This document shows, one piece after another, positions 15,863 through 17,923 of a DNA stretch of 51,831 nt. The notes under the pieces are model-generated. The model had not been told where the DNA came from and made no database searches. It saw nothing but the letters and a program-made list of their open reading frames with translations. Each line of letters begins with the position of its first letter. The stretch's first letter is position 1. The position numbers were made by a program, and so were the translations under genes. The stretch is from Patescibacteria group bacterium (GTDB taxonomy: Bacteria > Patescibacteriota > Minisyncoccia > Phycocordibacterales > 21-14-all-36-13). The stretch spans positions 1 through 51,831 of the forward strand of contig JAHIHZ010000011.1 in assembly GCA_018899555.1 (NCBI GenBank), read 5' to 3'.

Positions 15863-17923
15863 CTAAATAATTCTGGAAAATCCTTTTTCATTCAAAATTT
15901 TTACACCAAGTTTCTTTGCTTTTTCATATTTAGAGCCGGGGTTAGGACCAGCAACGACATAATCAGTATTTTTTGAGACCGAATTTGATATATTTCCTCC
16001 TAATTTTCTTATTTTTTCTTTTGCCTCATCTCTAGACATACTTGAAAGAGAACCGGTTAATACAAAAGATTTTCCTTTTAGTTTTCCTTCTTCTTTTTTA
16101 TTTTTTAAATTTTTAATTTCAATATATTTGAGAAGGTTTTGAACTAATTCAAAATTGTTTTTATCTTTAAACCACCCATAAATCGATTGTGCTGATTTTT
16201 CACCAATACCATAAATACCTTGAAAATCTTCTATTTTTGCCTTCGTTATTTTATCTAAATTTTTAAACTCTTCGGCAATAGTATTTGCGGTTTCTTCTCC
16301 TATAAAATCTATTGATAGCGATGTTAAAAATCTTGCTAAGGTTATTTTTCTACTTTTCTTTATGGAATCAATAAGATTGTCAGCAGATTTTTCGGCAAAT
16401 CTTGGCAAACTTAACAAATCTTCTTTTCTTAATTTAAAAATATCATCAAAAGAATTAATCAGACCATTTTCCATCAACAGGTCCACAATTTGTGGGCCCA
16501 TTCCATCAATATTGAAACATTTTTTTGAAACAAAATAATGAATTTTTTTTGAAAGTAATGAAAAAGATTTTTTATCAACACACCTGTAGGCTACTTGTCC
16601 TGGAATTTTTTCTATTTTTCCATCTCCCCCACACCCAGAAATCTTTTTAGGAAATATAAAAGGTTTTGAATTTTTTTTCCTTAAATCTAAAATCACAGAA
16701 ACTATATCGGGTATTACATCACCAGCCTTTTGTAAAACAACATTATCTCCTATTCTTACATCTAATCTTTTTATTTCATCTTCATTATGAAGAGTCGCTC
16801 TAGACACCACAGAACCGGCAATTCTCACGGGTTCAAGAACTGCAACCGGAGTTATTACACCCGTTCGTCCTATTTGGAAAATAATGTCTTTGATTATTGT
16901 TGTTGTTTGGGTTGCTGAAAATTTATATGCGACACCAAATCTTGGCGATTTTGCTGTATATCCTAATGCTTTTTGTGTTTCATTATCATTTATTTTTAAA
17001 ACGATTCCGTCAATCCCATATACTTCTTCGTGTTTTTTTTCTGACCATTTTTTATAAAAACCTTCCACCTCATTTATATTTCTACAAAGTTTAAAATCAA
17101 GATTAACATTAAAACCTAATTCTTTTAAAAAAATTAACTCTTCTTCTTGCGTCTGAATTTCATTATATTTATCTGCGTTCATCTGCGGTTTTTTATCTGC
17201 GTTAATCTGCATTTTGTCTATGTCGTAAGCAAAAAAACTTAAATTCCTTTTTGCAACTACTTTAGGGTCTAGTTGTCTAATAGAACCCGCAGCCGCATTT
17301 CTTGAATTAGCAAATTCTGGTTCATTATTTTTTTTTCTTTCTTTATTTATTTTCTCTAATTCTCTTTCAGATAGCCAGCATTCTCCTATAACTACAATAT
17401 CTACAGGAAGTTTTAAACTTAAAGGAATATCGTCTATTGTCTTTATATTTTGTGTTACATCTTCCCCCACAATTCCATCACCTCTTGTTGCTCCAGTTTT
17501 AAGAACTCCTTTTTTGTATGTTAAAACAATTTTAAGCCCATCTATTTTTAATTCACAAAGATATTCAGCTCTTGGATTATCCTTTGTCTCTTTTAAAATA
17601 AATCTCTCTATTTTCTTGTCCCATTTTTTTAATTCTTCAAAATTAAATACATTGTCAAAAGACCATTGTTTTAATCTATGTTTTATTTTTTTAAATTCAT
17701 CCAAAATTTCTCCGCCCACTCTCTGACTAGGGCTCGTTGGAGATTTAAATTGAGGATATTTTTCTTCAAGTTCAATCAGCTGGCGCATCAATGAATCGTA
17801 CGCCTCATCAGAAATTTCAGGTGTATCTTTTTTATGATACATTTCAGAGTGATGTTCTACAACTTTTCTTAGATTTTCTATTTTTTCTTTAATTTCTTTG
17901 TTTTTTATCATAGAAAAATGCAA
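15863..17923 (-). CDS. ligA: NAD-dependent DNA ligase
   Basis: 686 aa with adenylation motif CELKIDG, OB fold, Zn finger ([18 protein letters not shown]), HhH and C-terminal BRCT. In-frame repeat insert at 17171-17210. Confidence 0.93.

Follow-up and report, generated by a model that had tools for sequence, protein, structure and literature searches.

A heptamer array in frame within ligA of a Paceibacterota bacterium as a probable terminal arm of a miniature selfish element

Results

The ligA module and its host gene

We analyzed a stretch of 51,831 nt (hereafter the window; contig JAHIHZ010000011.1 of assembly GCA_018899555.1) from a tiny groundwater bacterium, a member of the Paceibacterota in the candidate phyla radiation (CPR), in which a short array of heptamers lies in frame inside ligA, the gene of the NAD-dependent DNA ligase. 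The gene (15863-17923, minus strand) is intact: LigA presents complete Nlig-Ia, DNA_ligase_aden (E = 3e-85), DNA_ligase_OB, HHH_2/5, and BRCT domains in Pfam, with the KxDG motif as ELKIDG, and it aligns to E. coli LigA (2owo) over residues 10-685 (E = 8e-158). On the plus strand, positions 17171-17210 read ATCTGCGTTCATCTGCGGTTTTTTATCTGCGTTAATCTGC, which contains three exact copies of ATCTGCG and is completed by a fourth unit, ATCTGCA, that extends to 17211. Read in the direction of the gene, this is a four-unit module (17171-17211, minus strand; TGCAGAT-TAA-CGCAGAT-AAAAAAC-CGCAGAT-GAA-CGCAGAT) with a heptamer spacing of 10/14/10 nt, which we consider a candidate solo arm of a small selfish element. 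ATCTGCG was counted 38 times in the window versus 3.0 expected (standard deviation 1.7; maximum 7) from 100 dinucleotide-preserving shuffles. The sequence, the Pfam domains, and the alignment to E. coli LigA all bear out the initial annotation of this DNA, which had placed an ATCTGCG repeat unit in frame inside ligA.

The peptide encoded by the module corresponds to residues 238-250 of the LigA open reading frame (ORF) and is followed by K251. It is located in the adenylation (nucleotidyltransferase) domain (Pfam, residues 76-337), as had been annotated; the additional suggestion that it lies near the OB domain does not agree with these limits. An internal peptide duplication had also been reported. 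The peptide is present, but the module possesses a single stop-free sense frame, which is the one used and which reads Q-I/M-N-A-D-K, and this accounts for the apparent duplication QINADK/QMNADK. The two other sense frames encounter TGA or TAA contributed by the A-rich spacers. Contig JAHIFN010000004.1 of assembly GCA_018900715.1 is identical to the window (100%), and two further assemblies encode an identical LigA protein, so that it is found in three or four assemblies; some of them may derive from common reads or a common project. The open ligA frame is therefore not a one-off assembly artefact.

Ten related ligA loci (L001-L010) were used for comparison. Relative to the ortholog of L009, which is 67% identical and has no insert, the codon alignment indicates 14 additional codons in LigA of the window. 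In the codon alignment, each of the orthologs that are 77-82% identical carries another short periodic repeat in this loop: four CGCGGAC units spaced by 10/11/10 nt in L004, in-frame AAATCAY arrays in L005 and L007, and GC hairpins in L008. Because LigA of the window is not sister to that of L004, which is closest to L005, and because the L004 repeat is read in another codon phase than the module of the window, the two CGC-type modules entered independently. Among 60 Paceibacterota LigA proteins the loop is mostly short, and a scattered minority has unrelated insertions of up to ~25 residues at the same point. To judge by these alignments, the LigA loop is an insertion hotspot across Paceibacterota and the module of the window is a real lineage-specific insertion. 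The LigA proteins of E. coli and Thermus show a gap of ~10 residues at the position of the insert. In the AlphaFold model of LigA (mean predicted local distance difference test, pLDDT, of 86), the insert is placed between the strand at 225-236 and the helix at 255-265, and its block scores 70 and 52 versus ~90 on both sides. The insert is thereby predicted to be a low-confidence surface loop and a permissive site. The ortholog codon alignment, the 60 proteins, and the model agree with the variable loop assumed in the initial annotation.

The copy most similar to the ligA module is intergenic (11241-11281) and is identical at 39 of 41 positions, all three spacers included; the remaining copies of the window are identical to the ligA module at 34-37 of 41 positions. 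This degree of identity shows a recent common origin for the ligA copy and the copy at 11241. In addition, a 41-nt module identical to the ligA copy is in frame in MnmA of another organism (L212, a groundwater contig). A search for kinship of L212 and a further locus, L229, to the lineage of the window through shared genes found no link, these loci covering different regions.

In-frame copies in gatC, rsmI, and metagenomic genes

The initial annotation had listed gatC and rsmI with ligA as three essential genes carrying in-frame modules. The in-frame insertions are there, but the full module is found neither in gatC, which has the first and last heptamer, nor in rsmI, which has one unit. The remnant in gatC (15574-15656, minus strand) is composed of these two heptamers and two nested GC-rich hairpins, all of them in frame in the codon alignment. 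The gatC gene of L004 has an intact in-frame four-unit module (SQMNADDKVQMNADD); in the window, L007, and L008 the first and last heptamers are kept with GC-rich hairpins between them and the frame is kept; in L005 and L009 no module is present. The Pfam match of GatC covers 88 residues for 66 profile positions. In rsmI (4630-5349), the insertion (5124-5182, minus strand) contains one CGCAGAT unit followed by an array of AAATCAC-type heptamers (...PADNPKSGRSKSQNTNHKLQ...), which belongs to a different array family, and the protein is 10 residues longer than the L009 ortholog.

We then scanned metagenomes for the four-unit module, which yielded at least 161 independent modules at at least 119 loci, with a host GC content of 0.30-0.69. 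The reading frame was evaluated for modules flanked on either side by 80 or more coding codons. Among the matches listed, 18 such modules were in frame and without a stop, 16 of them in sense orientation, and four modules had flanks in different frames, none of which represented a disrupted gene. Two of these four are a non-coding tandem array, one is an adjacent gene pair, and one is a high-GC non-coding array. Ten host ORFs were verified with Pfam: class-I tRNA synthetase, GatB, RecG, GyrA, MnmA, CysRS, IF-2, Mur ligase, enolase, and DUF763. Several in-frame hosts carry a whole hairpin, whose sense arm reads ...TQINAD... and whose antisense arm reads ...NLRKNLRESA..., and both arms are included in the intragenic copies of GyrA, GatB, and a LeuRS-like protein. 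This count of the phase of copies inside ORFs, which the initial annotation had called for, indicates that the frame is kept. Together with the insertions in ligA, gatC, and rsmI, it supports the proposal that essential genes tolerate these repeats in frame in a manner similar to the Rickettsia palindromic elements (RPEs). One of the GyrA genes (L208:2661-6758, plus strand) also contains an intein (Pfam Intein_splicing, residues 129-641), and its in-frame heptamer hairpin is in the C-terminal beta-propeller.

Distribution and architecture of the arrays

A collection of genomes was scanned with the loose pattern ATCTGCGNNNATCTGCG (14 specified bases). Among the matches listed, 60 of 120 genome loci had at least three CGCAGAT units at a spacing of 9-10 nt, and such arrays occurred in nearly every bacterial phylum, including isolates such as Draconibacterium, Geothrix, Nodularia, and Oligosphaera, and also in archaeal bins. 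CGCAGAT arrays are thereby shown to be a cross-phylum motif that is specific neither to a genome nor to a lineage. In viral contigs, the exact triple array was found in 25 stretches, and control heptamers of matched composition gave 3, 1, and 7. Most matches of these controls were plain tandem decamers (identical spacers in 12 of 16), whereas the spacers differed in 32 of 47 CGCAGAT arrays.

The arrays fall into two polar families, both with a sharp outer edge. In one, ATC is followed by CGCAGAT-TA-CGCAGAT-Tnn-CGCAGAT, and a spacing of 9 and then 10 was observed in 35 cases versus one case of the reverse; in the other, ttAAC is followed by CGCAGAT-GAA-CGCAGAT-GrA-CGCAGAT. We counted 78 solo arms and 25 compact inverted pairs, in which the sharp ends point outward around a fully variable middle of 4-193 nt. 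The arms lie between genes. The orientation of solo arms is unbiased with respect to genes (20 co-oriented, 15 anti), so that a directional RNA function was rejected. The outer triplet is identical between paired arms in 16 of 16 pairs. Spacers match in 6/16 and 5/16 pairs versus 1.9 and 1.5 expected, and most do not match. Such partial spacer complementarity, combined with the invariably identical outer triplet, favors sequence-specific recognition of each arm, and we rejected a strict RNA or cruciform stem model, the arms appearing to be read as sequence and not purely base-paired. Replication-linked polarity was rejected as well, since the GC skew of the window merely tracks gene orientation.

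No Rfam family matched the arrays, for which weak miRNA-precursor-like hairpin matches alone were returned. The arrays found on cyanobacterial and Bacteroides plasmids have no annotation, and none were found in a phage collection. In the searchable literature the array strings appear in no paper, and matches to CGCAGAT are primers. The arrays and the repeat-flanked genes described below are thus apparently undescribed in that literature.

Association with GxxExxY genes

A first search for a recurrent neighbor protein (60 loci, ORFs of at least 90 aa) found none. Clustering of the ORFs near arrays in ~270 loci revealed a recurrent protein of ~125 aa, which was identified as GxxExxY (TIGR04256, E = 1e-40; Pfam PDDEXK_3). 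Inward-facing arms bracket 9 of 14 GxxExxY ORFs on both sides and three more on one side, whereas among background ORFs of comparable size 4 of 3,563 are bracketed on both sides. The complete elements of two loci (L216 and L195) have arms with a spacing of 10/13/10, which is the same type as the ligA arm. When contexts were picked by protein similarity alone, all six GxxExxY contexts had arms. The arm heptamers of this sample vary by lineage (CACAGAT, CACGGAT, CACGGAC, CGCGGAC, and CGCGAAT), and both array types of the window fit this variation. A GxxExxY/PDDEXK_3 gene between inverted C-R-C-R-R-A-Y arrays with ~10-nt spacing, which is the organization that we propose for the element, was found at loci outside the window. 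These observations show that the association of arm, nuclease gene, and arm is tight.

GxxExxY proteins form at least 5,664 clusters at 90% identity, and no relative by sequence was found among solved structures. The predicted catalytic residues E31, D70, and K82 are invariant and E80 is nearly so. The structural model has a pLDDT of 96, and its nearest folds, although weak matches, are Cas4 and RecB-type nucleases. PDDEXK_3 is listed with unknown function and has experienced several transfers between phyla (PMC3424549). The literature that names GxxExxY or PDDEXK_3 is silent on repeats.

Other candidate partners were evaluated and rejected. The four-helix-bundle protein of intervening sequences (IVSs; PF05635) was not bracketed by CGCAGAT arms in any of 11 ORFs. 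A GIY-YIG protein was considered as mobilizer; the GIY-YIG ORF of the 16S gene belongs to a separate insertion that is shared with relatives and has no flanking arrays, and such ORFs were found in Paceibacterota loci only. Finally, inward-facing arms 0.3-5 kb apart enclosed no transposase-sized ORF, which speaks against an autonomous form with a transposase.

GxxExxY domains and genes were also observed in other settings. The RecG protein of L229 (2930-5608, minus strand; 893 aa) contains a complete PDDEXK_3 domain at residues 477-590, between the DEAD and Helicase_C domains, with both arms read in frame; this placement is intein-like without splicing domains. At L289, L299, and L293, free-standing GxxExxY genes are located directly downstream of ligA (two organisms) or between pcrA and gatC (another), which is the same housekeeping neighborhood as in the window.

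Other copies in the window

Several modules of the window are intergenic. The closest relative of the ligA copy is part of a feature at 11227-11281 (minus strand), just past the stop codon of an ORF at 11300-11908, and L008 has a module at the same position. Next to it, the variant heptamer CGCGGAC forms a tandem array, (ACGCGGACTTA)n (11159-11209, minus strand), whose unit number varies between strains. Two four-unit modules with 10/13/10 spacing, both on the minus strand, are located 5 nt past the stop of the pilin gene at 19453-20049 (19408-19447), where an adjoining (TTTAACA)n array varies between strains, and 4 nt past the stop of pilC at 23146-24351 (23102-23141). In the region of the 23S rRNA and its introns we found a five-unit arm built from CGCAGAT, CGCGGAT, and CGCAGAA (44839-44887, plus strand) and a four-unit arm spaced by 10/14/9 (46902-46941, plus strand). 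The copies that had initially been reported in the two intergenic regions and in the 16S rRNA (10007-10046) were recovered as four-unit modules.

Another assembly of the same strain (L002) shows no substitution relative to the window over 22 kb and differs by two indels (19393-19406 and 11189-11210), each of exactly two units: 2 x TTTAACA and 2 x ACGCGGACTTA, with L002 lacking two units of the array at 11159-11209. As these whole-unit indels are the sole differences, short-period arrays are the fastest-changing sites of the genome. Contiguous heptanucleotide arrays (TTTGTGA/AAATCAC and TTTAACA) are frequent in intergenic DNA (5124-5157, 6252-6313, 19378-19406, and 51111-51646), and rsmI as well as the LigA loops of L005 and L007 also contain such arrays in frame.

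Three larger hairpins are located in rRNA genes, all on the minus strand. The 16S gene (Rfam, 7537-10134) is 2.6 kb long. At the tip of its helix 6 (V1), a heptamer hairpin (9928-10072) has its sense arm at 10007-10046, degenerate partner arms at 9938-9993, and small nested hairpins. This insertion (~145-170 nt) stands in for the short helix-6 hairpin of L005 and L009; it is absent from their 16S and present in that of L008, and it folds with -46 kcal/mol (z = -5.1 versus shuffles). A second hairpin in the V3 region (9118-9245; arms at 9175-9213 and 9129-9167) is likewise absent from L005 and L009 and folds with -49.8 kcal/mol (z = -5.7). A copy of the V1 hairpin in the 23S rRNA region (49181-49348) is 98% identical over 111 nt and has an extra 60-nt hairpin nested before the last heptamer. 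No ORF was found inside the rRNA heptamer hairpins of the window.

Tiny GC-rich hairpins (20-35 nt, e.g., CCCCCACACCAAAATTTTTGGTGTGGGGG and TTATCCCGCCAAGGCGGGATAA) are nested in heptamer modules at 15590-15650 (gatC, in frame), at 49279-49341, and at ~9570-9600 of L008. They appear to be a second and still smaller class of inserted repeat.

The remaining features concern the surroundings of these copies. A group I intron (8340-8618) is also located in the 16S gene, as is a GIY-YIG ORF of 87 aa (9538-9801) within a hairpin extension common to L005 and L009; downstream of the gene, a fragment of a group II intron (7165-7254) and a LAGLIDADG ORF (6697-7287) are found. The 23S rRNA was found in pieces (48714-51831 and 46211-47486, within the region 44700-51831) with at least two group I introns (46966-47196 and 47704-47976). 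Two ORFs are located between gatC and gatA, one for an R.PabI-like restriction endonuclease (14667-15416) and one of 396 aa without annotation (13484-14674); because gatA directly follows gatC in L005, L007, and L009, the interval 13484-15416 looks like a mobile insertion in the gatCAB operon. Finally, four blocks of 140-300 nt, 90-95% identical and ~4.8-4.95 kb apart, are shared by 36204-38228 and 41158-43020, which indicates a duplicated gene segment.

Discussion

Origin of the ligA insertion

We conclude that the sequence in ligA is probably (roughly 70%) one terminal arm, present as a solo copy, of a small selfish DNA element. Under this interpretation, a complete element would measure ~520-600 bp and consist of an arm of three to four CGCAGAT-type heptamers set one helical turn apart, a gene for a PD-(D/E)XK protein of the GxxExxY family (~125 aa), and an inverted arm. 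Gene-less derivatives, that is compact hairpins and solo arms, would be far more common. In the host genome, as seen in the window, derivatives alone are visible, and these are placed after stop codons, at the tips of variable helices of rRNA, and within a small number of proteins. Any copy in a coding gene would be translated, since it is not removable from the mRNA, and would survive only if it consists of 3n bases, is free of stops, and occupies a structurally permissive position. The 14 residues added to LigA would make up a flexible loop on the surface of the adenylation domain, between motifs IIIa and IV.

We extend this tentatively, at somewhat less than even odds, to a wider proposal. 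The C-R-C-R-R-A-Y heptamer arrays (prototype CGCAGAT) may be the ends of an undescribed family of miniature selfish elements of bacteria and archaea, whose cargo, the GxxExxY nuclease, would recognize its own co-varying arms. [quoted passage not shown] We infer that the nuclease recognizes the arms and drives their spread, and solo arms presumably derive from whole elements. The rRNA hairpins may behave like intervening sequences processed by RNase III.

Several points weigh against this interpretation. A hidden Markov model search of the 52-kb window and the ten related ligA loci found no GxxExxY ORF, so that any trans-acting nuclease of the host genome is unobserved, and the literature reports no nuclease activity, DNA binding, or transposition for GxxExxY proteins. 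Solo arms exceed pairs (78 versus 25). A target-site duplication is undefinable, because the arm borders (TTAA and AT) are themselves palindromic and a duplication would be indistinguishable from the repeat. We infer the translation of the LigA insert from the preservation of the frame. The nuclease gene could also land preferentially at the arms, which would then not be part of the element. Moreover, slippage and gene conversion contribute, as neighboring arrays change by whole units between strains, and these processes could move or homogenize modules by themselves.

Slippage is also at the heart of a purely local origin, in which the module arose by slippage or tandem duplication within an unconstrained loop of ligA and resembles other copies because mutation throughout the genome tends to produce the same periodic oligomers. 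The two strains compared over 22 kb do differ solely by whole-unit changes in two short-period arrays, every close ortholog has a periodic repeat in its LigA loop (e.g., AAATCAY in L005 and L007), and several kinds of heptameric arrays fill intergenic DNA. We nevertheless consider this origin unlikely, since the ligA copy shares 39 of 41 positions with the copy at 11241, three non-repeated spacers included, and since an identical module is found in MnmA of another organism. The unit is no simple tandem repeat either, with seven conserved and three variable bases and a 14-base center, and the same architecture recurs across phyla with sharp polar boundaries. Somewhat less credible still is that the modules are operator sites of a DNA-binding regulator or nucleoid protein and that those in ligA, gatC, and rRNA are functional binding sites that overlap genes by chance. 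Conserved heptamers with variable spacers at a spacing of one helical turn, polar arms with purine-rich spacers, and the many copies located a few bases past stop codons would suit such a role. It is difficult to reconcile with an orientation and distance to genes that are inconsistent (20 co-oriented versus 15 anti), with the lack of a recurrent regulated gene, with copies inside rRNA helices and protein loops, and with arrays that tightly bracket a nuclease gene; the identity of the heptamer across bacterial phyla and archaeal bins is unlike any regulon known to us.

Sequences used for DNA uptake deserve consideration because the window contains a full type IV pilus operon, and type IV pilus or competence machinery encoded beside ligA could read such motifs. 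The DNA uptake sequences (DUS) of Neisseria and the uptake signal sequences (USS) of Haemophilus, which the arrays resemble, occur at high density, as inverted pairs after genes, and as in-frame copies at poorly conserved protein positions, and searches for transposases around the arrays found none. We judge this explanation improbable: the same heptamer is present in many unrelated phyla, archaeal bins, and viral contigs, the units are ordered into polar arms of three to four and are not single motifs, and they show a specific association with a nuclease ORF. The removal of the insert at the RNA level, yielding LigA without the peptide, is the hardest to believe. Related copies in rRNA do form long hairpins of the type that RNase III excises from rRNA (PMC4990558), but the ligA module is a solo arm without predicted structure of its own (fold z = +0.55), and RNase III would cut the mRNA and not splice it. 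Frame and stop-freeness are kept in 18 of 18 genuine intragenic cases among the matches listed, and such preservation would be unnecessary if the insert were removed before translation.

Significance and comparison with known systems

Beyond Rickettsia, the modules represent an independent and apparently much broader case in which repeat DNA has become part of the genes that code for essential enzymes, here in CPR bacteria. The proteins and rRNAs of this group are known for unexplained insertions. The proposed element also offers a first testable role for GxxExxY proteins, and it would explain common spurious peptides of metagenomic proteins, short stretches like ...TQINADK... and ...NLRKSA... 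being translated element arms. Heptamer modules also have practical consequences, as they break assemblies, inflate loop alignments, and create spurious ORFs.

In their behavior in proteins, the arms are similar to the RPEs, which are short non-autonomous repeats found in frame in unrelated essential genes of a reduced genome, with an added peptide compatible with the fold, and in both cases no mobilizing enzyme has been identified in the host (PMC10969869). RPEs, however, are palindromes of ~100-150 bp restricted to Rickettsia, whereas the ligA copy is a non-palindromic heptamer arm of 41 nt in Paceibacterota whose motif recurs in different phyla and is associated with a nuclease gene. The rRNA copies are similar to the IVSs of Coxiella, Leptospira, and Salmonella, which are selfish insertions at variable tips of rRNA helices with complementary termini that form a stem of ~28 bp; some enclose a small ORF, and their sporadic distribution looks like horizontal transfer (PMC4990558). 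The V1 and V3 hairpins of the 16S gene share this form, i.e., an insertion in a variable helix with a long stem. In contrast, the cargo of classical IVSs is a four-helix-bundle S23p ORF (PF05635) and that of the arm element a PD-(D/E)XK nuclease, and the arm element is also found in intergenic DNA and protein-coding genes.

At the scale of the genome, the arms are similar to REP sequences and their hairpin-forming doublets (REPINs) with the associated transposase (RAYT), in that repeats are intergenic and genome-wide, occur singly or as hairpin-forming inverted doublets, and flank one small enzyme gene. A REP is an imperfect palindrome with GTAG at one end and is mobilized by an HUH/Y1 transposase, the RAYT. 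The arms differ in being direct heptamer arrays, in flanking a PDDEXK_3 gene, and in a heptamer conserved across phyla. MITEs such as Correia, ERIC, BOX, and Nezha are also small, with terminal inverted repeats and a high copy number, often nested and occasionally intragenic (PMC10969869). Unlike those of MITEs, the terminal repeats of the arm element are three to four phased heptamers, and its ORF-bearing form encodes a PD-(D/E)XK nuclease and no known transposase. Free-standing homing endonucleases and inteins offer a further parallel, with a small nuclease gene in tight gaps between housekeeping genes or inside them, as in RecG of L229; unlike inteins, the insert has no splicing domains and stays in the protein, and the nuclease family is uncharacterized. 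The closest systems are therefore the RPEs for behavior in proteins, the rRNA IVSs for behavior in rRNA, and REPIN/RAYT for the genome-wide logic.

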